IMG/VR virus record: IMGVR_UViG_3300005512_000040
Coordinates: 1-57,231 of that record
Direction: 5' to 3' (one strand)
Length of the DNA stretch: 57,231 bases
Source: a virus
Lineage: Duplodnaviria > Caudoviricetes
The notes under the pieces: generated by a model
Told to the model about the DNA's origin: nothing
Database searches by the model: none
The model's input: the letters and a program-made list of their open reading frames with translations, nothing else
Made by a program: the position numbers and the translations under genes
In this document: piece by piece, positions 5,088 to 52,607 of the stretch
Layout: the number at the start of each line of letters is the position of its first letter
How positions within the stretch are numbered: position 1 is the first letter of the stretch

Positions 5088-5148
5088 CGCCAACGCCGGG
5101 GGTGTGCCTCGGCGCGGTAGCGACGTAGGCACCAGCCCTTTGTTGGGC
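5088..5148 (-). repeat. attC-like site (61 bp)
   Basis: CGCCAAC-GCCGGG-GGTGTGCCT...AGGCACCAGC-CCTTT-GTTGGGC; loop homologous to the site at 43847. Confidence 0.85.
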
Positions 5149-5199
5149 TTTTCTGGATCGGAAACAACGCCGGACAATCCGGCAGAAAGGTAGGACAAG

Positions 5200-6018
5200 A
5201 TGAAGGTTACAGAACTGGCGAGTGGAATTGCGCACGACGGGCGCACAAAGGTAGAGCGTTACGAGTGGGATGCGCTGAAGGCGCGATCCAAGCACATGCG
5301 AATCAAGATCGCAGACCTCAACGTCGATGATTACCAGAGGGGGGAGGCGAAGCGCGGATCAACAATCCAAAAGGCAAAACACTGGGACCATGCCGCCGCC
5401 GGTGCTGTTGTCGTCGGCCAGCGTTCCGACGGATCGTTTTGGGTGGTTGACGGATTGCAGCGCACGCTGGCAGAAGCATTGCGGGGCGACATTGATGCCG
5501 TTGACTGCATGGTGTTCCAGTCAGAAGGAACAGAACATGAGGCCAGAGTTTTCCAACTCTGCAACCTCGGAAGAATCCCGGTTGACGCAATACACAAGTT
5601 CCGCGTTGCCGTGAAGGCCGGAGACACTGTTGAATGCGCCGTTCAGAATTGGGTTGTGGCGAACGGTTTGCGGATTGCGGGGGATAAGGGCAAGAATGAG
5701 ATCGGCTTTCCGTCGTACGTCGTTCAGTTCTGGAAGGCAAACACGGATGCGGTCAAGCGCGCGCTGTTGTTTTCCATGCGCGTCGGTGACGGGGAAATGT
5801 GCTCCGAAGTATTCAAGGGCGCATACCTGCTTATCACACGGGGCGTTGATGTTGAAAAATATGAAACCAGCATCATCAAGCGAGGTGGGCACAAGCGATT
5901 ACTGCGCGACATCAACGCCACGGCTATCGAGGCGGGCGTCAGCAAGAACCTTAACGTATGCGCACGCGGCATACTGTCGAGCATCAACTATCGCCGCAAG
6001 TTACGGGTGGAGATTTGA
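5200..6018 (+). CDS. ParB/Srx-like N-terminal domain protein (DUF6551-like), cassette-borne
   Basis: LNVDDYQR...VVVGQRSDGSFWVVDGLQR motif. Confidence 0.7.
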   Translation: MKVTELASGIAHDGRTKVERYEWDALKARSKHMRIKIADLNVDDYQRGEAKRGSTIQKAKHWDHAAAGAVVVGQRSDGSFWVVDGLQRTLAEALRGDIDAVDCMVFQSEGTEHEARVFQLCNLGRIPVDAIHKFRVAVKAGDTVECAVQNWVVANGLRIAGDKGKNEIGFPSYVVQFWKANTDAVKRALLFSMRVGDGEMCSEVFKGAYLLITRGVDVEKYETSIIKRGGHKRLLRDINATAIEAGVSKNLNVCARGILSSINYRRKLRVEI

Positions 6019-6019
6019 A

Positions 6020-6075
6020 GCCCAACGTGCCCGTGAGCGGACCCGAAGGGGTACGCTCCACGGGGCTTGTTGGCA
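6020..6075 (-). repeat. attC-like site (56 bp)
   Basis: GCCCAAC...CGTGAGCG...CGCTCCACG...GTTGGCA. Confidence 0.85.
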
Positions 6076-6093
6076 ATTCTGGAGGCAACAGCA

Positions 6094-6366
6094 ATGGATA
6101 GGCTATACAGCGTAACGATCGAATATCTTGGGATCAAGAAGCAGGACAAGTTCCCGGCGTCCACTATCTGCCTCGGCAAAGACGGTGCATTCCTTGTGAT
6201 GGACGGGCAAGGCGAATCTGTCCGATTCGTTGCCAAGGATTGCAAGGTCGAACAGATCGCCGCGCATGTGATTATTCTGCACGGGTACACCGACAAGCCG
6301 CGACACATCACGGCGTACTGCGTATATGCCAACGCCGAGGGTCAGTTTTCGGCGGAACGACGATAA
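6094..6366 (+). CDS. Cassette hypothetical protein
   Basis: GGAGG RBS; ends inside the attC at 6327. Confidence 0.7.
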   Translation: MDRLYSVTIEYLGIKKQDKFPASTICLGKDGAFLVMDGQGESVRFVAKDCKVEQIAAHVIILHGYTDKPRHITAYCVYANAEGQFSAERR

Positions 6367-6386
6367 ACTGCACCCTTTTGTTGGGT
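6327..6386 (-). repeat. attC-like site (60 bp)
   Basis: TGCCAAC-GCCGAG-GGTCAGTTT...AAACTGCACC-CTTTT-GTTGGGT. Confidence 0.88.
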
Positions 6387-6404
6387 GCGAGATTGGAGGA
6401 CAAC

Positions 6405-6680
6405 ATGAGACTGGATGAAGTTGATAGAGCATGGATGATACGAGGCGCACACCACTTGGCAGCACGGCACCGCAAGCGGCATATCCCGCTGTGGTCATTC
6501 GTTGGGGCAGTGTGCTCCGTGGGCAGCACGTCGGCAACGATGATATGCCGCGAACTCGGATGGGACCCAAACGCGCCTGCGGACAGGGAACTTCCGTCAC
6601 CCAACGCTCCGGGTGAGGGTCGCGGTATTCCGCGTACCCTCGACCCGATTGTTGGCAGTTCTTCGGAGGGCACGGAATGA
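6405..6680 (+). CDS. Cassette hypothetical protein
   Basis: GGAGG RBS; reads through the attC at 6599 and overlaps the MTase start (ATGA). Confidence 0.7.
   Translation: MRLDEVDRAWMIRGAHHLAARHRKRHIPLWSFVGAVCSVGSTSATMICRELGWDPNAPADRELPSPNAPGEGRGIPRTLDPIVGSSSEGTE
6599..6657 (-). repeat. attC-like site (59 bp)
   Basis: ACCCAAC-GCTCCG-GGTGAGGGT...ACCCTCGACC-CGATT-GTTGGCA. Confidence 0.88.
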
Positions 6681-7375
6681 AACCATACTATCAAGATGAC
6701 GCGGTAACGATATACAACGGGGATTGCAGGGAGATTCTTCCGGCTATGACAGGGAATGTTGACATGGTTCTGTCTGACCCTCCCTACTTCGTCCCAGCAA
6801 ACTCCTACACTGGGAAGCGTGGCGAAGGCTATCACCGCAAGATGCTCGGCGACACTTCCATAATGGGTATGGCATTCGAGCTTGTGTTTGCGCACTACGT
6901 TGACCGTCTCGTATCTGACACCGGAACCTACTACGTCTTTTGTGACCCGCAATCATATCCGCATGTTTGGGCGTCTCTCTATCCGCTCTGCCATTCGACC
7001 AGGATGCTGGTATGGGACAAGATGACATCGTTCAACGGGTACACATGGCGCAGACAGTTCGAGTTGATAGCGTGGGCGAGTAAGCCGAACGCGCCGCGAA
7101 TCCCTACCGGGGACGGCGATGTGTTGCGGTGCCGGGCTGTGAAGGTTGGCGACAGGGAACACCCAGCAGAGAAGCCGCACGAACTCTTGCGGCAGTTGAT
7201 CGGCAAGCACGCTCCGACGTTGGTTCTTGACCCGTTCTGCGGGTCTGGCGCGGCGGTGGTTGCGGCCAAGACGTGCGGTGTACGAGCCGTGGGCATAGAG
7301 ATTGAGGAGCGTTACTGCGAACTGGCAGCGCGGCGATGCTCGCAGGAGATGGACTTTCATACTGCCAACACTTGA
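6677..7375 (+). CDS. N4/N6 DNA methyltransferase (beta class), cassette-borne
   Basis: DPPY...HPAEKP...LDPFCGSG. Confidence 0.92.
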   Translation: MKPYYQDDAVTIYNGDCREILPAMTGNVDMVLSDPPYFVPANSYTGKRGEGYHRKMLGDTSIMGMAFELVFAHYVDRLVSDTGTYYVFCDPQSYPHVWASLYPLCHSTRMLVWDKMTSFNGYTWRRQFELIAWASKPNAPRIPTGDGDVLRCRAVKVGDREHPAEKPHELLRQLIGKHAPTLVLDPFCGSGAAVVAAKTCGVRAVGIEIEERYCELAARRCSQEMDFHTANT

Positions 7376-7411
7376 ACTGTGCGGCTCGTCCGCACGAGTG
7401 CTTGGTTGGAA
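7363..7411 (-). repeat. Minimal attC-like site (49 bp)
   Basis: TGCCAAC-ACTTGA-ACTGTGCGG-CTCGT-CCGCACGAGT-GCTTG-GTTGGAA. Confidence 0.85.
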
Positions 7412-7424
7412 ACTGGAGGACAAA

Positions 7425-7610
7425 ATGGACATTGGAGAGATCAGAAACCGAGTGATGCAGATGGAATCCGAGGACGTGCGGAACGAGTTGGCCGCACTGT
7501 GCGACGAATGCGCGAAGACCCGCGTTACGCTCGCCATGCTGATCGGATGGCTACAGCGGGAGTTGGGCGAGCATAACGTCAAGACCCTGTTTGACCAGCT
7601 CGGACAGTGA
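7425..7610 (+). CDS. Cassette hypothetical protein
   Basis: GGAGG RBS; lies between cores at 7405 and 7615. Confidence 0.7.
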   Translation: MDIGEIRNRVMQMESEDVRNELAALCDECAKTRVTLAMLIGWLQRELGEHNVKTLFDQLGQ

Positions 7611-7686
7611 GTGTTTCCAACCCCAAGCACGGCGGCGCTTGCGTCCATTGATGCGGGAGTTGGCGGAGGCAAGAAGTGGACAATTT

Positions 7687-7821: not shown

Positions 7822-7836
7822 GCTTTTTGACACACA

Positions 7837-9113: not shown

Positions 9114-9120
9114 TGGTTTT

Positions 9121-9318
9121 CTACTCGCTCGGCCACTCGTCACCGTCAACTTCTATGCCACACTTGCCCGCCATGTCAAGCGCACGGCATACCGCAAACA
9201 TGATGCTACCGCTGCTCGCCACAAGCCGCAGCCCGCCGTCCACATACACGCGCGACTGCCACTCGCCGGTAGCCAGGCGGGTAAGCGTGCCCGTGCCTTT
9301 CTGTATTGTCGTTGTCAC
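9121..9318 (-). CDS. Small protein resembling the integrase N-terminus
   Basis: GTG start after AAGGAG; TTTIQKGTGTLTR vs integrase TTTRKGSGRLHK. Confidence 0.55.
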   Translation of the reverse strand: MTTTIQKGTGTLTRLATGEWQSRVYVDGGLRLVASSGSIMFAVCRALDMAGKCGIEVDGDEWPSE

Positions 9319-16860: not shown

Positions 16861-16934
16861 TGCGGGATAGTGTAGCGGCAGCACGCTGGGTTCATATCCC
16901 AGAGTCGGTAGTTCAAATCTACCTCCCGCAACCA
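16861..16934 (+). tRNA. tRNA-Met(CAT), initiator-like
   Basis: Full cloverleaf; anticodon arm CTGGG-TTCATAT-CCCAG with three G-C pairs; T arm GTTCAAAT; CCA end. Confidence 0.92.
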
Positions 16935-41448: not shown

Positions 41449-41742
41449 ATGGCGAATGGTGAAGGAATGAATAAGGCACAAAAGATGGTTGTTGGCGCTG
41501 GTTTAGGTATTCCCGCTGCGGCGCTGCTGCTGATTGGATCATACAAGGCAAAGGTCGACAACAACTGTGCAGACCTTGGAGTGATTAAGCCCAAGGTGCA
41601 ACAGATGGAAGTCACCATGCAGACGCATATTGCCGAGGCGCGTCAGGTGTCTCTTGACATCAAGCAGGAGCAGGGCAGGCAGGCAGAGAGGTCATTGCGG
41701 ATTGAGACGAAACTTGACGCGCTATCCGACCGGATCAAGTAG
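41449..41742 (+). CDS. Single-TM coiled-coil protein (lysis-associated?)
   Basis: TM segment plus ...RIETKLD end. Confidence 0.6.
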   Translation: MANGEGMNKAQKMVVGAGLGIPAAALLLIGSYKAKVDNNCADLGVIKPKVQQMEVTMQTHIAEARQVSLDIKQEQGRQAERSLRIETKLDALSDRIK

Positions 41743-41743
41743 C

Positions 41744-42205
41744 ATGTACCACGATTGGCGTCAGATGGAGTGGGTCAACCCCAAGGGCTTTACGTCCATA
41801 ATCGACCCCGACGAGCGCAGACGGTGGGGCCTGTTCTGGTCGATTGCCGTGCGCGAGGTCACGCTTGACAAAGACGCGCCTCTCACGCTAAGGGTGAATG
41901 ACGGTTGCTACGTGCAGCCGGACCGCCATTTCACGTCAGACCTTGGCAGCATACCGCCGCCGCTAACCGCAATACCTGGACTTGAGCGCGACCGATTCCC
42001 GAAGTCCTACCTCCTGCACGATTCGGCGTGCGACAATCACGGCCTGTACTTCTCGTCAACGCTTACCGGTCCGTTCGTGTTCTGTGAAATGCCGAGTGAG
42101 TCTGTCCACAAGTTGCTGCGGTCGTCAGTCCGCGCAGAAGGCGGCAACGCGGTGAACGCTGCCGCCATCTATGCTGCTGTTAGGTCGTGCGGGCCTAGGT
42201 GGTGA
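41744..42205 (+). CDS. DUF1353-like protein
   Basis: FTSDLGSIP...YLLHD...IYAAVR..G. Confidence 0.75.
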   Translation: MYHDWRQMEWVNPKGFTSIIDPDERRRWGLFWSIAVREVTLDKDAPLTLRVNDGCYVQPDRHFTSDLGSIPPPLTAIPGLERDRFPKSYLLHDSACDNHGLYFSSTLTGPFVFCEMPSESVHKLLRSSVRAEGGNAVNAAAIYAAVRSCGPRW

Positions 42206-42254
42206 AACAACGACTCACCGACCAGACGTGCCGCTGGTCAGTTCGGTGTTGGCC
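42205..42254 (+). repeat. Unbulged 50-bp terminal site (attI position)
   Basis: AAACAAC-GACTC-ACCGACCAG-ACGTGCCG-CTGGTCAGT-TCGGT-GTTGGCC; homologous to the site at 44965. Confidence 0.7.
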
Positions 42255-42820
42255 TCTACCTCGTTGCCCCACACCGTCCAGCCGGGGCGGGCGCGGCGGG
42301 CGAACAGTTCAAGCCGTGGCCCGTCGCTCACCGTCTCGATCATGTCCTGAAAGAACTCCGGTTTCGTGCTGTGCGAGTTGTGCGGGCGTTTCACCTGCCA
42401 CCACGTCGAGTCCACGCGCCGCTTGCCTTGCGGCATCCGGCCCTTGCGCCCCAACAACAGGAACTCGCTCGTCGGGCAGAACAGCCCGCCTTGCCCCAGC
42501 CCTCGCGGTCGCTTGCACCAGGTCAACGCCTGGCAATACCGGAAGCCCCACGCCTGCATGACGCTGAAGGCTTCCGGCAGGTACTTCTGCGTTGTCCACA
42601 GGTACAGGTCGCAGTCATCAGCGGCGCATCCGGCAACCGGAAGCGCGGCAATCTCGGAAACCGGCATGGTCGGATAGGGCATGTCGTATTCGTGTCCGTT
42701 CGGTCTGCTTGCCGGAGTTGCGCGGCCCCACTTTCCGTATTGCCACGGCGGGTCTGCCACAATCGTCCGGAACCGACCGGAAGGCCAACCAAGAGGTGCA
42801 GCCGATTCGCTATCGCTCAC
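42215..42820 (-). CDS. MT-A70 family adenine methyltransferase, cassette-borne
   Basis: IVADPPW; YPTM; LYLWTT; WGFRY; HSTKP; RLELFAR...WGNE. Confidence 0.92.
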   Translation of the reverse strand: MSDSESAAPLGWPSGRFRTIVADPPWQYGKWGRATPASRPNGHEYDMPYPTMPVSEIAALPVAGCAADDCDLYLWTTQKYLPEAFSVMQAWGFRYCQALTWCKRPRGLGQGGLFCPTSEFLLLGRKGRMPQGKRRVDSTWWQVKRPHNSHSTKPEFFQDMIETVSDGPRLELFARRARPGWTVWGNEVEANTELTSGTSGR

Positions 42821-42841
42821 GGCTGACCTCCATCGTTCGGC
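42783..42841 (+). repeat. attC-like site (59 bp)
   Basis: GGCCAAC-CAAGA-GGTGCAGCCG...CGGCTGACC-TCCATC-GTTCGGC. Confidence 0.88.
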
Positions 42842-43095
42842 AACTCGTGAATACGCAGTGCCCACATACCATCGTCTCGCTCGTGCCACCTGCCAATGTT
42901 GATGCTCTGTCCGCCGTCGGTCTCGACCTCGACGAATCGGCCCGCTTCCGGCCCCGGAGGTCCATCGAAGACGATGTTGATTGCCGAGCAAGCGGATGGA
43001 GAACTACACGATGAAGGACGCAATCTGCATCCTCCCGGTCTCCCACATTCCGAACCCGTCCACTCCGTGCAATCGTTGTCGATGTCACACTTCAT
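42817..43095 (-). CDS. Cassette hypothetical protein
   Basis: Starts inside the attC at 42983; ...FDGPPGPEAGRFVEVE... Confidence 0.7.
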   Translation of the reverse strand: MKCDIDNDCTEWTGSECGRPGGCRLRPSSCSSPSACSAINIVFDGPPGPEAGRFVEVETDGGQSINIGRWHERDDGMWALRIHELPNDGGQP

Positions 43096-43121
43096 CGTGA
43101 GTCTCATCCTTTCCGTTAGCT
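42983..43121 (+). repeat. Long attC-like site (139 bp) with mutated R'' (AGC)
   Basis: GCCGAGC-AAGCG-GATGGAGAACT-ACACGATGAAG...CTTCATCGTG-AGTCTCATC-CTTTCC-GTTAGCT. Confidence 0.8.
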
Positions 43122-43375
43122 GCATACAAATGTTTCTCAAGTGATTCCCACTTGCAGGTACACGGCCCCTCTGCATCGTACCACTCATTGCACGGCTTAC
43201 AGTGATCACCGTAGAAAAGCAGCATTCGCACTAAGAGACGATTCTCTGCTTTGAGTTCGTCGATACTGCTAGCAGCCAACAACGGCTCGGACGGTACAGG
43301 AGAAACCGCGCTCAGGCAGTCCTCACAGAATCCGTCTTGCAAAGGTTTATTGTGAATCTTACACATCATCGTCAT
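43085..43375 (-). CDS. Cassette protein, Cys-rich
   Basis: RBS and start lie inside the attC at 43274. Confidence 0.7.
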   Translation of the reverse strand: MTMMCKIHNKPLQDGFCEDCLSAVSPVPSEPLLAASSIDELKAENRLLVRMLLFYGDHCKPCNEWYDAEGPCTCKWESLEKHLYAANGKDETHDEV

Positions 43376-43411
43376 GTCTGTTTCTCCTGCCCGTCAAGCC
43401 GAGCGTTCGGC
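43274..43411 (+). repeat. Long attC-like site (138 bp)
   Basis: AGCCAAC...GACGGTACAGGAGAAAC...GTTTCTCCTGCCCGTC...GTTCGGC. Confidence 0.8.
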
Positions 43412-43569
43412 ACTTCCGTCGATGTCGGATAGACGATTTCTGCCCCGCACTCTCTATCAGCGCACACCAAACGGTCATTATCCCAACCGCCGCCGTACAT
43501 CGAATGCATAATCTCACCGCAAATGTCACACGTCACCGGCGATTGCTTTGCCTTTTCAAACTGCGTCAT
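43372..43569 (-). CDS. Cassette Zn-ribbon protein
   Basis: CDIC...CADREC. Confidence 0.7.
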   Translation of the reverse strand: MTQFEKAKQSPVTCDICGEIMHSMYGGGWDNDRLVCADRECGAEIVYPTSTEVPNARLDGQEKQT

Positions 43570-43826
43570 GCGTCACCACCTGCCGAACAATCAGATTCGG
43601 CGGACGGAGTACCGCCGCTGATCTGCGCGTTGGCAACATCGGCCTTGCGGTCGAGCACCACAATGCACTCGTACTGCTGGACGTGGTATATGTCGCCATC
43701 GTCATGCCATACAACCCAAGCGTCACCCGTTGCACACGGGACGTGCTTGACTGTGCCTTCCAGCGTTTCGCCACCCGCCCAACACACCCGTACTCTGTCG
43801 CCCACTCTTGCGCCTGTATCAGCCAT
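43566..43826 (-). CDS. Cassette hypothetical protein
   Basis: GGAGG RBS; C-terminus encoded by the attC at 43582. Confidence 0.7.
   Translation of the reverse strand: MADTGARVGDRVRVCWAGGETLEGTVKHVPCATGDAWVVWHDDGDIYHVQQYECIVVLDRKADVANAQISGGTPSAESDCSAGGDA
43582..43635 (+). repeat. attC-like site (54 bp), near-identical to 46297
   Basis: GCCGAAC-AATCA-GATTCGGCGG-ACGGAGTACCG-CCGCTGATC-TGCGC-GTTGGCA. Confidence 0.88.
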
Positions 43827-43846
43827 TTTCGTATCCTCCATTCAGT

Positions 43847-43907
43847 TGCCAACAAAAGGCTTCAGCTTACGTCGCTATCGCGCCGAAGCTGAGCCTCGGC
43901 GTTCACA
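43847..43907 (+). repeat. attC-like site (61 bp)
   Basis: TGCCAAC-AAAAG-GCTTCAGCTT...AAGCTGAGC-CTCGGC-GTTCACA. Confidence 0.9.
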
Positions 43908-44125
43908 TTCAAGCCGCGTTGCAACCCCATATAGCGCGCCTTGTTTGTCACCGCTGACAGCCTCCTGCCTAGGTACTTCGCAAGCTCTTTAGCGGAAACC
44001 TTGCCGTAGTATTGCCGCATTACGGACTCGTCATTCTCCGTCCACGGCACGCTGCGAGGCTTCGTGGTCCTTATCAGTTCGTCAAGCTCTGGAACGCTCA
44101 CAACGCCGGATTGACAGCTTTTCAT
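43862..44125 (-). CDS. Small HTH/Myb-like protein
   Basis: WTENDE...ELAKYLGR..SAV..KARYMGL. Confidence 0.7.
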   Translation of the reverse strand: MKSCQSGVVSVPELDELIRTTKPRSVPWTENDESVMRQYYGKVSAKELAKYLGRRLSAVTNKARYMGLQRGLNVNAEAQLRRDSDVS

Positions 44126-44931
44126 AGCACCACCGCCTTTGCTTTCTGCGACTCAATCTTGACAGTTTCGGCATGCCAGTCGAACGCGCCATCGTCGGCA
44201 ACGTCAAACACCGTCACGCCCCAATCCACGAGGCCGGTGCATTGCCGCGCACCGTACTTCGTGCCCATCCCCTGCAATGCTGGCAGCGTCATTGCGACCC
44301 AACCAGGGCCACCGCAGAACGCGTGATAGTGGACGTGTCCGCGCAAAAACACGTTGGCGTCAGGCTGTAGCGCGTCCTCGTGGTTCCACAGGATGTTCCA
44401 CATGCGCTCCTTGGCGGTTGCTGTGTGGCGTCCGTGCGGGATCGTGCTGCTTCCGATCTTGTGTTTGAGGTCGAATACGCAGCCGTTTACGTCAACCCAC
44501 TCGTGAGCGCCAATCTTCTTGAATCCCGCACGCTCGGCAATGCGGTTCTCCCAATCCTCATCGTTGCCGGTATGGTATCCGGTGCCGTATACTCCGACCC
44601 ACTCAAAGCCGCGACGTGCATTGAGAAGCACGGCGTTAAGGCACTCAATCGCCATGTCTGACTGTTCCTCGCGGTCGGTCGTGATTAGCTCTGTGCCACC
44701 GCTCTTGCGTCCGGTGCCGTCGATTCCGTCGCCGACGTACAGCCCGAAGTGGAACGGACCAAGCTCGTCAATCATGCGCTTGTAATGGTCCCACAGCTGC
44801 CGTTGAAGACGCGCCCACTTGTTGTGTTTGGTTGTCGTGCCATTGACCTCTTTTGTCTGCCATGCGGGAGGCGTCAACCCGCAGGCGTGTCCACAGTGTA
44901 GGTCGCTTACTACAATTCCTCGTTTCTTCAT
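44122..44931 (-). CDS. Metallophosphoesterase
   Basis: SDLHCG, GDGIDG, GTGYH, KH, GHVH. Confidence 0.85.
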   Translation of the reverse strand: MKKRGIVVSDLHCGHACGLTPPAWQTKEVNGTTTKHNKWARLQRQLWDHYKRMIDELGPFHFGLYVGDGIDGTGRKSGGTELITTDREEQSDMAIECLNAVLLNARRGFEWVGVYGTGYHTGNDEDWENRIAERAGFKKIGAHEWVDVNGCVFDLKHKIGSSTIPHGRHTATAKERMWNILWNHEDALQPDANVFLRGHVHYHAFCGGPGWVAMTLPALQGMGTKYGARQCTGLVDWGVTVFDVADDGAFDWHAETVKIESQKAKAVVL

Positions 44932-44964
44932 ACTTGCGCCCCTTTCTCCGTTCGCTTTTCCTTC

Positions 44965-45014
44965 CGCCAACGATTCATTGACGGGACGTGCCGCCCGTCA
45001 ACTCGGTGTTGTGC
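44965..45014 (+). repeat. Unbulged 50-bp terminal site (attI position)
   Basis: CGCCAAC-GATTC-ATTGACGGG-ACGTGCCG-CCCGTCAAC-TCGGT-GTTGTGC. Confidence 0.7.
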
Positions 45015-45199
45015 CGCTTGTTGGGTTTACAAGACTCTCTGGCTTCAATGTCGAACTCAACGTCGAAGCGCACGGACTCACGCTTCTCCCATTCTTCGCG
45101 GTCAACCGACATATCACGGTATGCCTTCAGTAACCGTTGCAGGATCTTCAGGCTGTCCGTCGACAGTTCATCCACATCAACAATGATCTCGTTTTCCAT
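44975..45199 (-). CDS. Cassette hypothetical protein
   Basis: AAGGA RBS; MENEIIVD start. Confidence 0.65.
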   Translation of the reverse strand: MENEIIVDVDELSTDSLKILQRLLKAYRDMSVDREEWEKRESVRFDVEFDIEARESCKPNKRHNTELTGGTSRQ

Positions 45200-45226
45200 C
45201 TGGTTCCTTTCCTGCCTTGCCGGGAA

Positions 45227-45286
45227 ACCCAACAAGACAATTCACGCTATCGGCGTTCCGCCGAATCGTGATTGTTAGCGTTGTGC
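45227..45286 (+). repeat. attC-like site (60 bp)
   Basis: ACCCAAC-AAGAC-AATTCACG...CGTGATT-GTTAGC-GTTGTGC; loop homologous to the site at 6327. Confidence 0.85.
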
Positions 45287-46284
45287 GTCAAAGGCAACAG
45301 CCCCTGCCGCAGTTCGTTTTCCAGCCGCGCCCGCGCAGATTCAAACTCGCGCTCGTCCTTTTCCACGCCGACAAACCGCCGCCCGGTCTTGATGCACGCC
45401 AGCCCGGTCGTGCCCGACCCCATGAAGCAATCCAACACCGTATCGCCCGGATTGGTCGTTGTCTCGACGATTCTTTGCATGAGTTCCAATGGCTTCGGCG
45501 TGGCGTGCCCGTTGGCTTTCGCGGGCGGGTATTGCCATACGCTCGACACTTTGCCGGGGTTGTTGAACGTCGGGCGGAGATGTTCGTACTCGCGGCGCAG
45601 GTCGTCGTACTCGCGGCGCAGGTCGTCGTAAGTTCTCTTTAATGGTAGGATTTTCCCCAATTCCGAATAGAGTTGCTTGTCGCATAAATCCCACCGCCGC
45701 CCCTTATTCCACCCGATTTTATACGACGCATGAACACGGACGCTCTCTTCGGTGGTATAGCGCCCGTCTCGCCTAAACACAGCATGCACGTCCTCTTTTG
45801 TTCTTCCGCTCAAATCAAAGGCAGCAAGAAAATACTCTCGCAACGGGCGACAAATGGCGTTCTGATCTGTCCACTGCCCGTCGTCAGCGTGGTAGACGAT
45901 GTACTCGGCCAGCTTCGCGAATGAACGCAGTAGTGGGCTATCTCGCGCGGCATACAACTGCGAATGTGCTTGCTCTGGTGCGTATTTATCCCACGTCACC
46001 CAGTTTTGCATCGGTCGCCCGTGCCGCTCGATGATTCGCGCAATGTCGGCCAGCACCAGCGGCTCAGAGTGGAAACACCAGAACGCACCTTGCCGCTTGC
46101 ACCCCCTTGACGCCGCCGCAATCCACGACTCGCACCATTCGAGGTAGTTGGGTATCTTGTCCCATGCCGCCTTGCCAATGTTGTACGGCGGGTCAGTCAC
46201 AACGGCGTCGCACTCCACTGGTAGCACGTCTAGGCAGTCGCCACGGATGATGGTCACATCGTCAGATAGTTTTACCGCTTTCAT
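45247..46284 (-). CDS. N4/N6 DNA methyltransferase, cassette-borne
   Basis: TDPPY; HATPKP; LDCFMGSGTT; YDDLRRE heptad repeats. Confidence 0.92.
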   Translation of the reverse strand: MKAVKLSDDVTIIRGDCLDVLPVECDAVVTDPPYNIGKAAWDKIPNYLEWCESWIAAASRGCKRQGAFWCFHSEPLVLADIARIIERHGRPMQNWVTWDKYAPEQAHSQLYAARDSPLLRSFAKLAEYIVYHADDGQWTDQNAICRPLREYFLAAFDLSGRTKEDVHAVFRRDGRYTTEESVRVHASYKIGWNKGRRWDLCDKQLYSELGKILPLKRTYDDLRREYDDLRREYEHLRPTFNNPGKVSSVWQYPPAKANGHATPKPLELMQRIVETTTNPGDTVLDCFMGSGTTGLACIKTGRRFVGVEKDEREFESARARLENELRQGLLPLTHNANNHDSAERR

Positions 46285-46286
46285 GA

Positions 46287-46778
46287 TCAATCCCTCGCAC
46301 AACAATCAGATTCAGCGGACGGAGTACCGCCGCTGATCTGGGCGTTCGCAACATCGCACGGCTTCCCGCACTCGGTACACTCGTGCCAGCGCGTTACGTT
46401 GCCGCGCACGACAACAGGCGCGTGACAGCAGGTGGAGGACTTGCCATCAATGCAGATTGCCGCACTTGCGTCCCAACCCTTGCGCGCCGTAACGTCGTTC
46501 AGCCACGCAACAAGCTCGTCTACGCTCTTGATTACCACAGCCTGACCGCGCCACGCCTCGTGCCACTCAACCTGCAACTCGTTCAGTTTCGACTTGCTCG
46601 GGCACTTGCTGCCGTCCTTTACTTCAACCAGGTAGTTGCGCCCGCTGTGCCCGACCAGCAAGTCGGGCACACCAGCACCGACAGCCTTAAGGTCGCACAC
46701 CGTCGCACCAACCTTGCGCAGTACGTCCACAATCTGCTTGTGATTGGCGTCTGGTTTGCCGTACTTCCTTGCGTTCAC
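46287..46778 (-). CDS. VRR-NUC-like nuclease with Cys-rich C-terminal extension
   Basis: DANHKQIV..LR..G...GVPDLLVG...LVEVKDG. Confidence 0.85.
   Translation of the reverse strand: MNARKYGKPDANHKQIVDVLRKVGATVCDLKAVGAGVPDLLVGHSGRNYLVEVKDGSKCPSKSKLNELQVEWHEAWRGQAVVIKSVDELVAWLNDVTARKGWDASAAICIDGKSSTCCHAPVVVRGNVTRWHECTECGKPCDVANAQISGGTPSAESDCCARD
46297..46350 (+). repeat. attC-like site (54 bp)
   Basis: GCACAAC-AATCA-GATTCAGCGG-ACGGAGTACCG-CCGCTGATC-TGGGC-GTTCGCA. Confidence 0.88.
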
Positions 46779-46978
46779 AGCACCCCTCCCAGCACCAGCG
46801 CGAGCATGATTGCCGCAAGTAGCGCCGCCAACTCAACGCGGCGTATGCGGTTGTCTTCGCGCTCCTTGGTCGTGTTTGACCACGTATCGGCTGGGCAGTT
46901 CGCGCACCGCAGCCGTCCGGTCGGGTCTGCCATGTGCCAATCGTGCAGTCCTATGCGGCACTTGAGCGGCGTTTTCAT
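46775..46978 (-). CDS. Small protein with C-terminal TM
   Basis: CRIGLHDW...CANC; hydrophobic end. Confidence 0.6.
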   Translation of the reverse strand: MKTPLKCRIGLHDWHMADPTGRLRCANCPADTWSNTTKEREDNRIRRVELAALLAAIMLALVLGGVL

Positions 46979-47391
46979 GCGGCGTCCTCCACATCGTCAA
47001 GCGGCTGTACGGTGTAGTCTGCGCGCTTGCTTCGTGTCGTTGTCAGTTTCAGGCTCAGCGGTTCGTCAATGCCGCTTACGTGCGATATGCGGATGCCGCC
47101 TACCTCGACGCCGCCGAACTTCACGGTCGGATCGCCGTACAACGTCATGCGTTGCCCTACCCAATCCTTGCCCTTGTCGCCCCATGCCGCAATCAGGACG
47201 CGGCGCATAGACTTGCACGGTCTGAATACGCGGTCCATTTCTGCCAGCACCACGTCAACGGGCTGCTCTGCCGCGCCTTGTCTGAGCGTGCTGACCGTCA
47301 CTGTCAACGGCGCTTTTGCCACGTCGTCAAAGTTCAACTGATCCGACTTGGGCCGAATCGTGTCTCTCAGGCTCATTGCTTTCTCGGTCAT
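46975..47391 (-). CDS. Conserved phage recombination-module protein (KSDQLN..DD type)
   Basis: PKSDQLNFDD...PCKSMRRVL...WG...GGIRISH; adjacent to the exonuclease. Confidence 0.7.
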   Translation of the reverse strand: MTEKAMSLRDTIRPKSDQLNFDDVAKAPLTVTVSTLRQGAAEQPVDVVLAEMDRVFRPCKSMRRVLIAAWGDKGKDWVGQRMTLYGDPTVKFGGVEVGGIRISHVSGIDEPLSLKLTTTRSKRADYTVQPLDDVEDAA

Positions 47392-48200
47392 GTCAACCCC
47401 TCCATGTTCACTGTTGCATCCTCCCCGCCGCAAGCCCACGACGGCAGCGCGTAGTCCTCTATCATTTCGGTCACGCCGGGAAACGAACCGGCAGCCTCGC
47501 AAGCCCTGTAACGCGCCGCAATCTCTATTGCCTCGTCACGCCCCTGCTCAAGTATTGGGAACGGCACGCGGTACACAGAGCAGTCATACGGTGGGTCTTG
47601 CTCAATGGCAATGACGTGGAACGGCAGCGATCCGTCACCCGTTGCGAGTCGTGCGCCCGTCCAGTACCATCCGAACTGCAAATGGTATCCCATGTTGTAG
47701 CACGTCCGCTCAAACGCGCTAGGCGCAATCTGCTTGGTGGTCTTCACGTCGAACAGGCCAACGCGCTTGTCGAACCCGTCAAAGCGCGCCTTGCCTTTGC
47801 CGTACCGCTTGCCCTCCCAATAGCAACTTACCTCGTGCTCGCTGTTGGCTATCAGGTGGTGTGCGTCGTGGTTTGCGTGTACCGCAGCCGAAATCTCAAA
47901 CAGAGCGGCGTGCGTGTCGCTTGTGACAATCCACTCTGGATCGTGCGACACCGCTGCGTCCTTGTACTGCTTTGAGTTGCGCGGCGCGTCGAGCACAAGC
48001 AACTGACCGGACAGCAATTTCGGCTCAAGTATCGCCGCGTGTATCAGCGTTCCGAGTTTCATTGCTGGTGACTGCGGTTTGCGTGGGCCAACAATGGCGT
48101 GGCGCATGTGCTTCATTGACTTGACGCCAGCCTTGATTGCCGTCGCGCTCATACCTGGCGCGCGTATGTACTCGTCAAACGGTATTCCTGCCTGCATCAT
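47388..48200 (-). CDS. RecE/ExoVIII-like PD-(D/E)xK exonuclease (DUF3799-like)
   Basis: LGTLIHAAILEP...KARFD...DVKTT...YHLQFGWY. Confidence 0.85.
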   Translation of the reverse strand: MMQAGIPFDEYIRAPGMSATAIKAGVKSMKHMRHAIVGPRKPQSPAMKLGTLIHAAILEPKLLSGQLLVLDAPRNSKQYKDAAVSHDPEWIVTSDTHAALFEISAAVHANHDAHHLIANSEHEVSCYWEGKRYGKGKARFDGFDKRVGLFDVKTTKQIAPSAFERTCYNMGYHLQFGWYWTGARLATGDGSLPFHVIAIEQDPPYDCSVYRVPFPILEQGRDEAIEIAARYRACEAAGSFPGVTEMIEDYALPSWACGGEDATVNMEGLT

Positions 48201-48223
48201 GCTTCCGCGCCTCCCTCCGCGCC

Positions 48224-48493
48224 TCACTCCGTGCTTTCAATCCTATCGTCGCCGCTCTCGTGCCTATCCCACATTACGTCCTCGCTGTCAAGCTCGCGCC
48301 AGTTCGTGCGCCTGTGCGCACCAGTACCGATTGACGACCAGCCAGACTCCGGCGTGGCTTCTACACGCGCTCCCCAACGCTTGTTGTTGCGAGCCTCGGT
48401 CACTCTGCACGCCTTGCGGTTGCAGTATCGCGCGAATGTCTCCGTGATAAACCGCCGTCCGCAGTGCTGGCATGTGACGTGTCGCATTATCAT
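48224..48493 (-). CDS. Zn-finger hypothetical protein
   Basis: CQHCG..F.....YCNRKAC. Confidence 0.65.
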   Translation of the reverse strand: MIMRHVTCQHCGRRFITETFARYCNRKACRVTEARNNKRWGARVEATPESGWSSIGTGAHRRTNWRELDSEDVMWDRHESGDDRIESTE

Positions 48494-48497
48494 AGCC

Positions 48498-48689
48498 CTA
48501 CCGCCTCCCGCTCTTGGTTGGGTCTTCCGCGCCCCATGTCTGTATTGTCGTCAGCGGCGCGTGATCGCCCATGTGCTCAATGGCCGACTCCGCGATGTCG
48601 GCAATCTGCTCGCACCTGTCGTCTGCGTCTGTGTCGTGGTCGCATGCGAGCGAGTAAATGTCAACGATGCACTGGTCTAGGTTTGCCAT
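48498..48689 (-). CDS. Hypothetical protein
   Basis: AAGGA RBS, downstream of the attC at 48718. Confidence 0.6.
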   Translation of the reverse strand: MANLDQCIVDIYSLACDHDTDADDRCEQIADIAESAIEHMGDHAPLTTIQTWGAEDPTKSGRR

Positions 48690-48717
48690 TGTGTTCCTTT
48701 CCTCTTAGCGGACAGTT

Positions 48718-48788
48718 GCCGAACCAGCGGATGGACAACTACCTTCATTCGCTGCGCTCATTTCGGAGTGTCATCCTTTCCGTTCCAC
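48718..48788 (+). repeat. Solitary attC-like site (71 bp)
   Basis: GCCGAAC-CAGCG-GATGGACAACT...AGTGTCATC-CTTTCC-GTTCCAC; arms homologous to the site at 42983. Confidence 0.8.
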
Positions 48789-49021
48789 CCGTGCAGCACC
48801 TTTGCCGCGACGGTCTGCACGTCGAACCGCAGCTTGGCCACGCGGTCGGTTTCGTCGATGGTGCATGGCGCGGCGATGGCACGCACGTCAATCATTACGT
48901 CGCCAACGTCGAGCGGTATGCAACACGCAACGCCCTTGCTGCCGTCAAACCTCTTGAACTCGAATGGCTTTCCTCGGTGCAGCCTGTTGCCAGCCTCGAC
49001 CATTTTGTTTGCGTCAGTCAT
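48758..49021 (-). CDS. Hypothetical protein
   Basis: AGGAGG RBS; ends inside the attC (WNGKDDTPK). Confidence 0.6.
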   Translation of the reverse strand: MTDANKMVEAGNRLHRGKPFEFKRFDGSKGVACCIPLDVGDVMIDVRAIAAPCTIDETDRVAKLRFDVQTVAAKVLHGWNGKDDTPK

Positions 49022-49126
49022 TTGGTTGTCCCTCCTGTCAACATGCGCAAACCATAGCACAACTGGCCGCCCGTGCAAGCGAAAAGTTTGCCGAAAATCA
49101 CGACGAAAAAAAATGCAGAAAGGGGG

Positions 49127-49156
49127 TTGACAACATGCAGCGGCGTGGGCTATTGT
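49127..49156 (+). promoter_or_regulatory. Sigma70-like promoter in the divergent control region
   Basis: A-tract, then TTGACA-N18-TATTGT. Confidence 0.55.
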
Positions 49157-49567
49157 TCGCGTGTCGACTGGGAGAAGCAGCAAGGAGGAGGCACCATGAG
49201 CACGACCGCAGAAAACAAGCAACAGCATCCTCCCGAGTGGGTGGAGCGCGCCATATTCGTTCTTGCGTTTGTCGGCGCGGTCTGGTGGGTTTGCGAAGTG
49301 GCGGCGCGTATGTTCGTGCCGTGGAACTGACGAGGGAGGATTGGTGTGGCAAACACTAGGAGGACCGACCATGCGACGGCTAATCCGAAAAGCAATACAG
49401 TGGTTCGAGATGGCGAGGGGCCTATGGTATCTCGCAAACCTGCCAACAGGCGAGTGGGAGTGCGCGGACGGCAGCACGCCAGAGGGCGCGTACAGGGGAA
49501 AGCAGTGCGGGGATGTGTGAGAACGCTGGCATTGAGCGGACAATGAAGCCGCAGAAGGAGGACTGAC

Positions 49568-49825
49568 GTGGACAACAACGATGGCGCGGCTTCATTGGTA
49601 CGCTCGGATGCTTTGTTGGGCTCCCTGTTCGACGGAGCGGCATACGTCGGCATTCACAAGAACGCAGCAGGGCGCATCACGCTTGTCGTCAATCACGGCG
49701 ACGGCTCCATGCGGACCTCGTGCAGCAAGAAGGGCCTCAGCTACGCGGACAAGCTGATTGAGTGCCGCAACCGTTTGTCCGAGACGCCCAACGCCGGGAG
49801 TCACCGGCAGGAGGAAGCGCGATGA
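49568..49825 (+). CDS. Cassette hypothetical protein
   Basis: AGGAGG and GTG inside the attC at 49518. Confidence 0.65.
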   Translation: MDNNDGAASLVRSDALLGSLFDGAAYVGIHKNAAGRITLVVNHGDGSMRTSCSKKGLSYADKLIECRNRLSETPNAGSHRQEEAR

Positions 49826-50103
49826 GGGAATGGGTTTGCAAACGATGTGGAACGTTCAACAGAGGAGTCCCGCGTTGCGAGAGATGTTGCGCGCTTCCTC
49901 CTGTACGGTCGGACTCCTTGTTCGATGTCCTGGTGGCTATTGTCAACACGGCGCAGACATGCCCCGACCGCTGCATGGCTGACGTGTGCAACGACAACTT
50001 CGCCGTGCATGGCGTGAACCTTCGGGCCGAGATGACCGACAACGAGGACGCGCCGGTCAGGATCGAGAGGACATCGAACGACAGCAATGAGCGGCAGCTT
50101 TAG
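49822..50103 (+). CDS. Cassette protein with N-terminal Zn-ribbon
   Basis: WVCKRCG...CERC encoded in the attC loop. Confidence 0.7.
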   Translation: MREWVCKRCGTFNRGVPRCERCCALPPVRSDSLFDVLVAIVNTAQTCPDRCMADVCNDNFAVHGVNLRAEMTDNEDAPVRIERTSNDSNERQL

Positions 50104-50157
50104 CTGTACGCTCCATTGGCCTTGTTGGGCAATCCCAGCGAGGCCGGAAAGGACAAG

Positions 50158-50451
50158 ATGAGACTGAGACGACAGATTAGACGGATGATGAGCCCGGTTG
50201 ATATTCTCCAATTCAGCCAGTTTACGATCGACTGGTTACAAGAGTTAGACGAGGCTGACGCGCACGGCGATACGACCGGCGACGAGCAGACTGACAACCT
50301 CGCCCTTGCCTACGAAATCGACACGATCCGCGAAGTCTTGCGCTACGGCAGCGACAAGGCGCTGTTCGATATGATGGCGGCATACGCACGGATCTGTATG
50401 CCCAACGATGATCCTCACGTTTCCGACGTGAGCACAGCGAACAAAGGATAA
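50158..50451 (+). CDS. Cassette hypothetical protein
   Basis: Ends PNDDPHVSDVSTANKG inside the attC. Confidence 0.65.
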   Translation: MRLRRQIRRMMSPVDILQFSQFTIDWLQELDEADAHGDTTGDEQTDNLALAYEIDTIREVLRYGSDKALFDMMAAYARICMPNDDPHVSDVSTANKG

Positions 50452-50606
50452 CGTGGAGGATTTTGTTGTGTGTCCGCGATGCGAAGAATGGAGCTTGCCA
50501 ATGTGCCTGATACGGACAACAGATGACGCATTGGTTGGCATGGGAATATCCGTAGCCCATGCATCGGGTGTGACTCCCGGCGCGGACTCCTTTTGTATAC
50601 ACAACG
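50400..50606. repeat. Duplicated cassette, copy 1
   Basis: 207 bp identical to 51502-51708 except one base seen (50408/51510). Confidence 0.95.
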
Positions 50607-50644
50607 TCCGGCCTGACGCGCCGGGCGAGAAAGGTGCGACATGA
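50453..50644 (+). CDS. Cassette peptide, copy 1
   Basis: GTG start inside the attC; CPRC motif. Confidence 0.6.
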   Translation: MEDFVVCPRCEEWSLPMCLIRTTDDALVGMGISVAHASGVTPGADSFCIHNVRPDAPGEKGAT

Positions 50645-50982
50645 CCAAGGCGGCTATACCCGGTCGCGTCGAGGCCGTTGTTCTCCACCTGGTTCTGACG
50701 CACCATTGGTTCGACGAGATGATCGCCGGCCGCAAGTGGACCGAGTACCGCAAGGTTACGCCACACTGGACGCGGCTGATATGGGACCGCCGCGACAAGA
50801 TCACGCACGCCCGGTTCAGCCGGGGCTACACGGCGCAGCGGATCATCCGCCGCGTGGAGCAGATCACGATAGGCCCGTGCCCCTACGACGGGTGGCCGGG
50901 GCAATACTACCGCATAGACCTCGGGGAGGTCCGTGTGGAGAACGACCGTCTTCACGGTCGAGGAAAGAGCGATAGCGAATGA
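50641..50982 (+). CDS. ASCH/PUA-like domain protein, paralogue 1
   Basis: LHLVL..HWFDEMIAGRKWTEYR...FSRGY. Confidence 0.8.
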   Translation: MTKAAIPGRVEAVVLHLVLTHHWFDEMIAGRKWTEYRKVTPHWTRLIWDRRDKITHARFSRGYTAQRIIRRVEQITIGPCPYDGWPGQYYRIDLGEVRVENDRLHGRGKSDSE

Positions 50983-51188
50983 CGAGTACCGTGCAAGACT
51001 TGGTTGTGCCCCTGTGGCCGTCCCGTTGCTTCTGGGGCTTCTGCCGGCACGAGATTCGCAAAGGTCTTATGTTTCGCTACTGGATCACGCTTCCGGCGAT
51101 CTGGCAGCGCGAACTGCAATTCCGCCGCGAGCTGACAGAGTGTTTGAATGGGCACAACGATTTGAATGAGGGGCGCAATGAAGGATAA
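50979..51188 (+). CDS. Cassette hypothetical protein
   Basis: ATGA-coupled inside the attC at 50937. Confidence 0.6.
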   Translation: MTSTVQDLVVPLWPSRCFWGFCRHEIRKGLMFRYWITLPAIWQRELQFRRELTECLNGHNDLNEGRNEG

Positions 51189-51313
51189 ATGTTCCGCCAA
51201 TGCTGATGAACAAGCCATGGGCTTGAGGCAGGACGGTCGGTCAGTTGACCAGCCTTCATTGCGTACCCTCCATTCTCTTGTTGGGCATCCAAATCAATGA
51301 AAGGAACACGACC

Positions 51314-51553
51314 ATGCTGATTACGATTCCACTGAGACGAACGTATCTTGTACTGAGCACCTGCAACCGATTCCTGCACGTCTACCTGTCGCGTAACGCT
51401 ACGCCGTGGCATCACTCCCGCGTCAGCCTGTGGGGGCGGCGCAAATACAACCGCTACGCAGCGCACGTCGGGGACGACGGTTGCTGCTGCGAATCCTGTA
51501 AGCCCAACGCTGATCCTCACGTTTCCGACGTGAGCACAGCGAACAAAGGATAA
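51314..51553 (+). CDS. Cassette hypothetical protein
   Basis: AAGGA RBS; ends PNADPHVSDVSTANKG. Confidence 0.6.
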   Translation: MLITIPLRRTYLVLSTCNRFLHVYLSRNATPWHHSRVSLWGRRKYNRYAAHVGDDGCCCESCKPNADPHVSDVSTANKG

Positions 51554-51708
51554 CGTGGAGGATTTTGTTGTGTGTCCGCGATGCGAAGAATGGAGCTTGC
51601 CAATGTGCCTGATACGGACAACAGATGACGCATTGGTTGGCATGGGAATATCCGTAGCCCATGCATCGGGTGTGACTCCCGGCGCGGACTCCTTTTGTAT
51701 ACACAACG
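51502..51708. repeat. Duplicated cassette, copy 2 (ORF 51555-51728)
   Basis: See copy 1. Confidence 0.95.
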
Positions 51709-51724
51709 CGGAGGTGACTGGACG

Positions 51725-52045
51725 ATGAGAGCGACAGCGAACAGCGGTACAGTCCACCGTCTTGTTCTCCACCTTGTCCTCACGGGAAGGTGGTTTGACA
51801 TGATGATGGGCGGTGTCAAAGACGTTGAGTATCGGGCAATCACGGAGCACTGGACGCGGTTGATTTGGAATCGCCGCGACAGGATCACACACGCCCGCTT
51901 TGCACGCGGGTACACGAAGGAAACCATCTTGCGTCCAGTGCGTCGCATCGACATTGGATCGTGTCCGTATGACGGATGGGATGGCGATTACTACAGGATT
52001 CACATGCCACCGATACAGGTGGAGAACGATGGGCGTCAGCCTTGA
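51725..52045 (+). CDS. ASCH/PUA-like domain protein, paralogue 2
   Basis: LHLVLTGRWFDMMMGGVKDVEYR...FARGY. Confidence 0.8.
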   Translation: MRATANSGTVHRLVLHLVLTGRWFDMMMGGVKDVEYRAITEHWTRLIWNRRDRITHARFARGYTKETILRPVRRIDIGSCPYDGWDGDYYRIHMPPIQVENDGRQP

Positions 52046-52104
52046 GCGAATAGCGAATAGGCTGGACGCCTTTGTTGGGCGGCCGGTCAGAAAGGGAAAC
52101 AACG

Positions 52105-52350
52105 ATGAAACTGTGCAAAGACTGCAAATGGCGTGACGGACACAGGTGCGTTGCGCCGCAAAACTCTTCCGGAGTTGACCCGGTTGACGGCGGCAAGGCG
52201 TCTGGATGGATTATGACGTGCCAGGCGCAACGCACTGGAACGTTTACGGGGTGGTTTTGGTGCCGCGTAACAAGGCTGTGCGGGAAAGAGGCTAGATGGT
52301 TCACGCCCAACGTAGCGCTCACGAGCGCCGACGAAGGAGGCGTATCGTGA
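52105..52350 (+). CDS. Cassette Cys-rich protein
   Basis: MKLCKDCKW...C...CGKEARWF. Confidence 0.7.
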   Translation: MKLCKDCKWRDGHRCVAPQNSSGVDPVDGGKASGWIMTCQAQRTGTFTGWFWCRVTRLCGKEARWFTPNVALTSADEGGVS

Positions 52351-52544
52351 AGCGCATGGTTGTGCGTCTGCTTTGCCGCCACGACTGGCGCGAACATACC
52401 GTTCTCGGAGTTGGGGATCACGAGTTTTCCGATCTACGCTCTTGCACCAAATGCACGGCCAGCAAGCTCTTGTTTTCTGGCACGCGGAAACAGTGGAGAC
52501 AACATCACGGCTACGATACGCACAACATTGCAATATCGAGTTAG
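52347..52544 (+). CDS. Cassette small Zn-binding protein
   Basis: AGGAGG and GTG inside the attC at 52305; LCRHDW...CTKC. Confidence 0.65.
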   Translation: MKRMVVRLLCRHDWREHTVLGVGDHEFSDLRSCTKCTASKLLFSGTRKQWRQHHGYDTHNIAISS

Positions 52545-52607
52545 GTTTCTTGCTGAACATGCGCAACCATCTACACGGCAACAGGCTACATAGAATGAGA
52601 GGGCAAC

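Follow-up and report, generated by a model that had tools for sequence, protein, structure and literature searches.

What are the two related hairpins, here termed A1 and A2, at which two arrays of small genes in a phage genome begin? The stretch analysed, hereafter the window, is the complete IMG/VR virus record IMGVR_UViG_3300005512_000040, a linear contig of 57,231 bp which represents a temperate phage and is estimated to be about 70% complete. A preliminary description regarded A1 (42205..42254, minus strand) and A2 (44965..45014, minus strand) as double-stranded equivalents of the attI site of integrons, at which new gene cassettes would land farthest from the operon promoter. Our analysis points to a different answer: A1 and A2 are probably attC-type anchor hairpins, i.e. 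paralogous short sites of a phage cluster of attC sites lacking integron integrases (CALIN), an assignment based on sequence and predicted folds.

About 20 small genes in the window are separated by hairpins of 41–64 nt (AAC to GTT), which are framed by xxxxAAC...GTTxxxx, follow most small genes and are always oriented with the gene. Approximately 25 such sites occur in 57 kb, in four runs of 3–10 sites on both strands and with no intI. A CALIN, as defined by IntegronFinder, consists of two or more consecutive attC sites without a nearby intI, and the four runs of candidate attC sites conform to this definition. Sixteen hairpins were listed from structure alone before their outer 7-mers were compared. 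In 9 of 13 pre-defined neighbour pairs, the GTTxxxx of one site and the xxxxAAC of the next are complementary at every position, a score that none of 200,000 permutations reached (mean 1.68), whereas the two 7-mers of one and the same site are perfectly complementary in none of 21 sites. The pairs that fail are S5–S6, S6–S7, S11–A2 (inner core) and A2–S10, and three of these four failures vanish once sites S15, S16, S17 and the outer core of A2 are counted. With such post-hoc sites included, 17 of 19 pairs are complementary, one of the two non-matching pairs (B1–S20) having been scored at a mis-set coordinate. Both A1 (GGCCAAC against GTTGGCC of S12) and the outer core of A2 obey the rule. Genes flanked by inverted cores, together with hairpins that are each a hybrid of two neighbours, constitute the known signature of integron cassettes.

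The polarity of the cassettes follows from four lines of evidence. First, a manual count over 17 singly folded sites, from which two rows folding as multi-branch structures were left out, placed 27 single-base bulges on the sense strand's 3′ arm against one on its 5′ arm. According to Nivina et al. 2016 (PMC5027507), extra-helical bases lie opposite 5′-AAC-3′ on the recombined bottom strand; bulges on the 3′ arm, opposite AAC, thus make the gene-sense strand the bottom-strand-like one. Second, 14 of 17 sites are more stable when folded on the sense strand, the same skew as that reported in the same paper. Third, the cassette of the MT-A70 methyltransferase (42249..42835, minus strand; PF05063, 79.9 bits), which consists of the S12 hairpin (42783-42841), GTTGGCC, the open reading frame (ORF) and GGCCAA/C, could be compared between genomes. 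Eighty loci with MT-A70 relatives were fetched; the gene end was inspected in 28 of them, the most similar ones with three near-duplicates set aside, and both ends in 10. In five phage loci among these 10 (the window, L028, L030, L032 and L038), GTTGGCC and GGCCAAC frame the gene, and the hairpin in front of it is kept, as one family in the window and L030 and as another in L028, L032 and L038. All five loci differ in the 7-mer that precedes this upstream hairpin and also in the sequence after GGCCAAC, which is A1, a B-type hairpin, one of two other hairpins or no hairpin at all. The remaining five loci have a TAA stop and neither core. Fourth, the B hairpin travels together with its downstream gene in two more pairs (B2 with L016; L012 with L015), and a duplication of 99% identity in array 2 (50394-50606 and 51496-51708) spans one hairpin and the downstream ORF up to the next AACG. 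Taken together, these observations mean that a hairpin moves with the gene downstream of it: the cassette is a hairpin plus the gene behind it, exchanged between AA and C (AA/C) of the sense strand. The boundaries and polarity of the cassettes, like the conservation of sequence and structure described below, are observed. The earlier proposal that attC polarity is opposed to that of the genes is correct, and the proposal that arrays 3 and 4 begin, in attC polarity, at A1 and A2, respectively, is supported.

With regard to the exchange point, the longest upstream ORF reads the left-core AAC in frame, as an Asn codon, in 19 of 23 rows, one third being expected (e.g. 42248-42250, 45280-45282, 6331-6333 and 50404-50406). 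The stop codon of the upstream ORF usually lies within the hairpin. If exchange takes place at AA/C, cassette ORFs would lack a stop of their own and use that of the neighbour.

A1 and A2 form a two-copy direct repeat (family D8) of 44 nt with 80% identity (42208-42251 and 44968-45011), and score 72.1 and 72.8 bits, respectively, against covariance model R1. Over 50 nt including the flanking 7-mers, 36 of 50 columns are identical; the sequence beyond is unrelated. The loop ACGTGCCG is common to both, and hence the homology and the shared loop stand as initially described. In gene direction, A1 reads GGCCAAC, a 6-nt spacer, a stem of 8+2 bp with a small apical loop, a second 6-nt spacer and GTTGTTT, and the inner core of A2 is GCACAAC...GTTGGCG. 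On the minus strand each site folds into CAAC, a 6-nt spacer, an 8-bp stem and two more C-G pairs round a 3-nt apex, and the return arm carries one unpaired T and a 6-nt spacer before GTTG. Of the sequence framed in the attC core consensus RYYYAAC/GTTRRRY, AAC and GTT are invariant in both A sites, and the purine/pyrimidine pattern of the four outer bases is followed approximately. All 28 cells of the alignment assigned to pairs (four outer CAAC/GTTG pairs and the 10-pair stem) do pair. Three stem pairs are changed on both sides between A1 and A2 and one on a single side (U-G to U-A), in line with the compensating arm changes noted before, whose hexamers cover two of the three double changes. 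When the 3′ partners are slid by 1–3 columns, only 18–57% of the cells pair and 0–1 double-sided changes are seen. A shuffle control (54 of 500) is uninformative, given that only two sequences are compared.

The two sites had also been called symmetric and devoid of an extra-helical base. The former is roughly right: an internal loop of about 5–6 nt interrupts each arm, as expected of the central spacer of attC, and the folding energies on the two strands are similar (−7.5 versus −6.0 kcal/mol for A1, −8.2 versus −8.6 kcal/mol for A2; DNA parameters). The latter holds in part. In attC, two or three extra-helical bases are expected, with a 6-bp stem setting the first apart from the last; S and B sites display two 3′-arm bulges, often 5–6 bp apart, and this two-bulge pattern is missing from the A sites. 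However, formation of both C-G pairs within the 8-nt loop is predicted to leave a one-base bulge in each A site (a T on the minus strand and an A on the plus strand), next to the apical loop and on the arm that also bears the bulges of the other sites. As a separate observation, GANTC (GAGTC/GAATC in gene direction) is found at the aligned 3′-arm position of A1 (42212-42216), A2 (44972-44976), B1 (43591-43600 region) and B2 (46306-46315 region); in the B hairpins its middle base is the predicted second bulge, and the window encodes two N6_N4-type methyltransferases.

The surroundings of the two sites show to which side each belongs. A1 is the last site of the minus-strand operon and lies at the convergent junction with the late operon, which stops at 42205; the MT-A70 ORF upstream reads through A1 to a TGA at 42215-42217. 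Given the cassette polarity, A1 goes not with the methyltransferase cassette but with what follows it, the end of the late operon. A2 is placed between a 74-aa ORF (ATG at 45199, stop at 44975-44977 within A2) and a gene for 269 aa (44122-44931), and by the same polarity belongs to a two-gene segment (43908..44964, minus strand) composed of the latter gene and an 87-aa ORF. This segment is read as backbone between arrays 3 and 4 because its flanking 7-mers match at only 4 of 7 positions. On its far side lies S10 (43847..43907, minus strand; TGTGAAC...GTTGGCA), the last site of array 3 in attC polarity, whose left 7-mer has no partner at A2. The 269-aa product received no assignment from PHROGs, Pfam or NCBIfam, and the 87-aa ORF matches PHROG entries for transcription regulators. 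Relatives of the 269-aa gene are 46–49% identical and lack such hairpins; the gene also matched one 2.6-kb metagenome contig, identical to the window, and a search of genome contigs with it returned no match. On the opposite side of A2, an outer core (45020..45026; ACCCAAC in gene direction, GTTGGGT on the plus strand) starts 12 nt past the first GTT (45008) and complements ACCCAAC (45227-45233), which is the S11 core, at every position; S11 (45227..45286, minus strand; GCACAAC...GTTGGGT) sits between the N6_N4 methyltransferase gene and the 74-aa ORF. The 7-mer of the first GTT matches the S11 core at 5 of 7 positions, and the second GTT is thus the one that fits the cassette core, as had been noticed.

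When the interiors of the A sites are set against those of 16 other sites, S13 and B2 come out closest, with z of 4.06 and 2.88, respectively, for A1 and of 2.80 and 3.88 for A2; the S13 score is reached by 1 of 2000 shuffles for A1 and by 16 of 2000 for A2. The reverse complement of A1 yields z of at most 1.24 against the other sites, so the likeness holds in the same orientation only. The apex GCGG..CGTC is common to all five aligned sequences. S13 is located mid-array, between S4 and S14, with both neighbour pairs perfect, and B1 is likewise mid-array. Two degenerate patterns, one for each half of the A site, matched no viral contigs, and model R1 detected no additional A-type copy in the window or in two sets of 91 and 20 loci; its best foreign matches among those 111 loci are B hairpins (16.7–17.3 bits).

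On these grounds we propose that the A sites would be recombination sites used in folded, single-stranded form, with the exchange point at AA/C on the 5′ side of the hairpin and the gene-sense strand acting like the canonical bottom strand. They would be backbone hairpins at the promoter-distal end of arrays 3 and 4, serving as anchors for the cassettes stacked on them, and are probably trimmed relatives of the B and S13 hairpins, differing from the other sites in their wide unpaired spacer and in having no more than one bulged base. A host integron integrase acting in trans could be the recombinase. With so few extra-helical bases, weak strand choice would be expected at the A sites. In addition, the A hairpins supply the upstream ORF with its in-frame stop, and they might act as weak terminators or stabilisers of the transcript. 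Of this scheme, the identity of the recombinase, the activity of the sites and any preference for an entry point are what we infer.

Several points weigh against this interpretation. The phage sites are shorter than the usual attC, and most of them have almost no unpaired central spacer (2 versus 1 nt). With one predicted bulge at most and near-even folding of both strands, the sequence of the A types is compatible with double-stranded use. The outer left 7-mers of the A sites (AAACAAC and CGCCAAC) have no convincing partner, which would also fit a non-cassette site such as attI. A GTTGGCG at 44353, 612 nt before the CGCCAAC of A2, was considered as a partner and rejected, since this 7-mer occurs 17 times on the strand and the match is likely due to chance; of GTTGTTT, no copy was found near A1. 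Breakpoints flank hairpins on either side. The likeness of B1 and B2 extends for about 10 nt upstream of the hairpin but stops immediately behind GTT, and A1 and A2 diverge both upstream and downstream. A model of one-sided exchange is thus incomplete, and exchange on the other side has taken place as well. According to Nivina et al. 2016 (PMC5027507), strand choice becomes weaker when extra-helical bases are lost, and weakened strand choice would fit the two-sided breakpoints of the A sites. The window, about 70% of a genome, contains no integron integrase. Finally, no recombination event was seen at A1 or A2 in one public DNA run kept as contigs, in which short, mostly diverged pieces lay over the methyltransferase genes, A2 was uncovered and joints were short-sided at 80% likeness.

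A bolder version of the preferred reading is that the phage carries an integrase-less platform, with genes reversed relative to attC polarity, in which the A hairpins are docking sites where the host integrase stacks cassettes with relaxed strand choice, i.e. a folded, attC-derived counterpart of attI. In such a platform an ORF would end in frame at AA/C and the hairpin of the neighbour would provide the stop codon. We consider this whole scenario unlikely.

We are equally doubtful that A1 and A2 act mainly at the RNA level, as gene-end hairpins that stop or stabilise the minus-strand transcript and have no present-day role in recombination, A1 being a two-way stop between convergent operons. 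Both sites do lie at the 3′ ends of ORFs, A1 exactly between the converging operons, and the sense strand of A1 has a U-G pair where the opposite strand would have C-A; furthermore, attC sites are said to act as weak terminators (Qi et al. 2023, PMC9892861). However, the A sites have no U-tract: no T-run follows the A stem on either strand, and a terminator consensus scan of 41500-53000 returned 9 sites against 10.6 expected, none of them at A1 or A2. Such a role would also leave both the AAC/GTT frame and the 7-mer rule unexplained.

The original proposal, that A1 and A2 are double-stranded attI equivalents and dedicated entry points of arrays 3 and 4 through which new cassettes arrive promoter-distally, seems to us very improbable. 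What stands of it is the position: both sites lead their arrays in attC polarity, are joined to backbone segments without complementary 7-mers and, like attI, meet the first cassette at a GTT. The homology between A1 and A2, the lack of the two-bulge pattern, the even folding of both strands and the partnerless outer 7-mers would all suit the proposal, as would the similar half-sites at the far ends of the two arrays (GTTCACA and GTTCGCA). The dedicated double-stranded mechanism fares worse. The compensatory changes preserve a hairpin; a stem under selection is needless for a purely double-stranded site, and an attI-type mechanism is therefore unsupported. The directional likeness to the mid-array S13 and B hairpins likewise speaks for sites of the attC type. 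attI is used double-stranded, lies next to its own intI and is recognised by its own integrase only (PMC2095811; bioRxiv 2022.09.11.507474). A1 and A2, by contrast, are conserved hairpins that resemble the attC-type sites of the array itself, and no intI lies beside them or elsewhere in the window, the sole tyrosine recombinase gene (8043-9149) being 33 kb away. Moreover, the site occurs twice, in one case mid-operon; neither array 1 nor array 2 starts with an A-type site; and the region upstream of an intI-like gene in a metagenome-assembled genome (MAG) of a candidate host, the comparison proposed at the outset, gave no match to the A model. As for the arrival of new cassettes at the promoter-distal end, nothing shows such a preference, and the only recent duplicate cassette (99% identity) sits mid-array.

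It is scarcely credible that the likeness of A1 and A2 reflects a shared C-terminal peptide (NTELTSGTSGR versus NTELTGGTSRQ) and not a nucleic-acid structure. Although the upstream ORFs read both sites in the same frame and end at the same TGA, we rejected this explanation because the nucleotide changes are paired across the stem and the two proteins are otherwise unrelated; in addition, the methyltransferase's Pfam match stops short of the site, at residue 244 of 258, and the same in-frame reading is seen at most sites whatever their sequence. A parS or other protein-binding palindrome, prompted by a ParB-like gene, was dropped, the apex of the A sites not being such a palindrome when judged against the consensus.

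How do the phage sites compare with known systems? As in attC, an imperfect hairpin is framed by xxxxAAC and GTTxxxx, the 7-mer at the start of a cassette is complementary to that at its end and not to the core of its own hairpin, and, in the A sites, structure is kept while sequence varies. The length of attC is usually quoted as 57–141 bp, and the phage sites are shorter. They also differ in the A type, whose spacer comes with no more than one bulge, in the location of the ORFs on the bottom-strand-like strand, which puts each hairpin ahead of its gene, and in the absence of an integrase encoded in cis. A further similarity to attC is that one strand, the bottom-strand-like one, folds more stably (PMC5027507). 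Phage CALINs that include methyltransferase cassettes, and whose attC sites are active with IntI1, have been published (Qi et al. 2023, PMC9892861); they share with the window the runs of attC-type sites, the absence of intI and DNA methyltransferase cargo (three genes here), whereas the window has far more sites and all of its cassette genes are inverted relative to attC polarity. Cassettes can also enter DNA outside attI and attC, at sites termed attG (Loot et al., bioRxiv 2022.09.11.507474), so a phage array would need no attI. However, attG is double-stranded and has a GWT consensus only and no hairpin; the A1 and A2 junctions are full hairpins related to the other sites. The boundaries in the window are exact AAC/GTT cores with integron-type complementarity. 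This distinguishes them from the promoter-stem-loop (PeSL) cassettes of T4-type phages, for which the model is exchange by homology between promoter-carrying repeats, although those, too, are short repeated intergenic stem-loops in a phage and linked to gene shuffling. What sets the window apart is the density of its sites, the inversion of the gene in each cassette, the shortness of the sites together with their near lack of a central spacer, and the spacer-bearing A type with few bulges.

If a recombinase acts on these sites, where might it come from? The window integrase scores 29 bits on the integron-integrase model TIGR02249 (cut-off 265), and its only relatives in PDB, both weak, are XerA (E 1e-4) and XerD (E 3e-3). 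None of five other phage records with the B hairpin encodes a protein above the cut-off either, the best reaching 82 bits in a complete genome. The B hairpin (family D4) is present twice in the window: B1 (43582..43635, minus strand; TGCCAAC...GTTCGGC) in the middle of array 3 and B2 (46297..46350, minus strand; TGCGAAC...GTTGTGC) directly upstream of the gene for the N6_N4 methyltransferase. The 26-nt core of the B hairpin recurs unchanged in five other viral contigs with a G+C content of 0.50–0.65 that are otherwise unrelated to the window; copies were located in L012 (5927-5980), L013 (3075-3132), L015 (~7650-7710), L016 (14161-14209), L107 (731-784) and L108 (~1950-2010), often beside methyltransferase genes. 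A 23-nt part of the core is also found in two genome-bin contigs, one assigned to Verrucomicrobiota, where it stands in front of an MT-A70 homologue, and one to Victivallales. A Verrucomicrobiota bin (L109) further contains the N-terminal half of an intI-like gene (220-1095), with 144 bits on TIGR02249, followed by a GIY-YIG-like ORF from ~1117 and an apparent integrase C-terminal end (1413-1480), and may thus carry an interrupted intI. Since the B core and the intI-like gene occur in the same Verrucomicrobiota bin, a host integron integrase could plausibly act in trans on the phage sites. About 100 nt upstream of the start of the intI-like gene, AACGTTGTAT is present, with GTTGGCC nearby. Two further observations concern B copies in other phages: in L107, one ORF appears to continue through the hairpin, and in L012 (~5860-5925) and L015 (~7600-7660), both on the minus strand, the gene behind it starts with MNELALFAGAGGG, which we take to resemble motif I of cytosine-5 DNA methyltransferases.

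Descriptions of integron parts in phages are recent and few. In the present phage, cassettes make up about a quarter of the small genes and include three DNA methyltransferase genes (6677-7375; 42215-42991, MT-A70; 45247-46305, N6_N4), which probably counter host restriction. The B hairpin, nearly unchanged across otherwise unrelated phages and Verrucomicrobiota/Victivallales bins, points to a common cassette pool through which phages of these hosts trade anti-defence genes. Reversed gene/attC polarity and an in-frame exchange point lie outside the predictions of the integron model, and A1 and A2, which mark the point where array and backbone meet, bear on how arrays could be founded without attI or an integrase of their own.

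The remaining arrays and genes are arranged as follows. Replication genes extend to ~7.4 kb (plus strand), followed by the integrase gene (8043-9149) beside a tRNA-like fragment; structural genes run to 42205 (plus strand), an early block occupies 42215-49543 (minus strand) and an additional block starts at 49568 (plus strand). Array 1 (5088..7665, plus strand) consists of S1, S2, S3, S4, S13 (7363-7411, A-like) and S14, and its 5/5 neighbour pairs are complementary at 7/7 positions. Its outermost half-sites, CGCCAAC (5088-5094) and GTTGGCG (7659-7665), are themselves complementary at 7/7, as if the array had grown within one ancestral site, and the right-hand (R′) 7-mer of A2 is identical to this outer GTTGGCG. 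S14, the last site of array 1, lies about 100 nt from a tRNA-3′-like fragment (7765-7828), which is probably attP, and 380 nt from where the integrase gene ends. Array 2 (49615..52365, plus strand) comprises S18, S19, S9, S5, S15, S16, S6, S17, S7 and S8; the 213-nt stretch duplicated in it, one cassette made up of hairpin, small ORF and next AACG, falls within an older duplication of ~1.1 kb that is ~70% identical.

Searches for related phages were less informative: with the exonuclease gene as query no relatives were found, and matches to GenBank phages were limited to short methyltransferase stretches. A 27-nt direct repeat with 89% identity (42981-43007 and 48716-48742) occurs within the minus-strand block in unrelated contexts and is not a hairpin site. 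An Rfam scan of the window at the gathering threshold gave a single match, a tRNA, and a tRNA gene (16861-16931, 64.7 bits) is located between the terminase-region genes and the structural gene for 766 aa.

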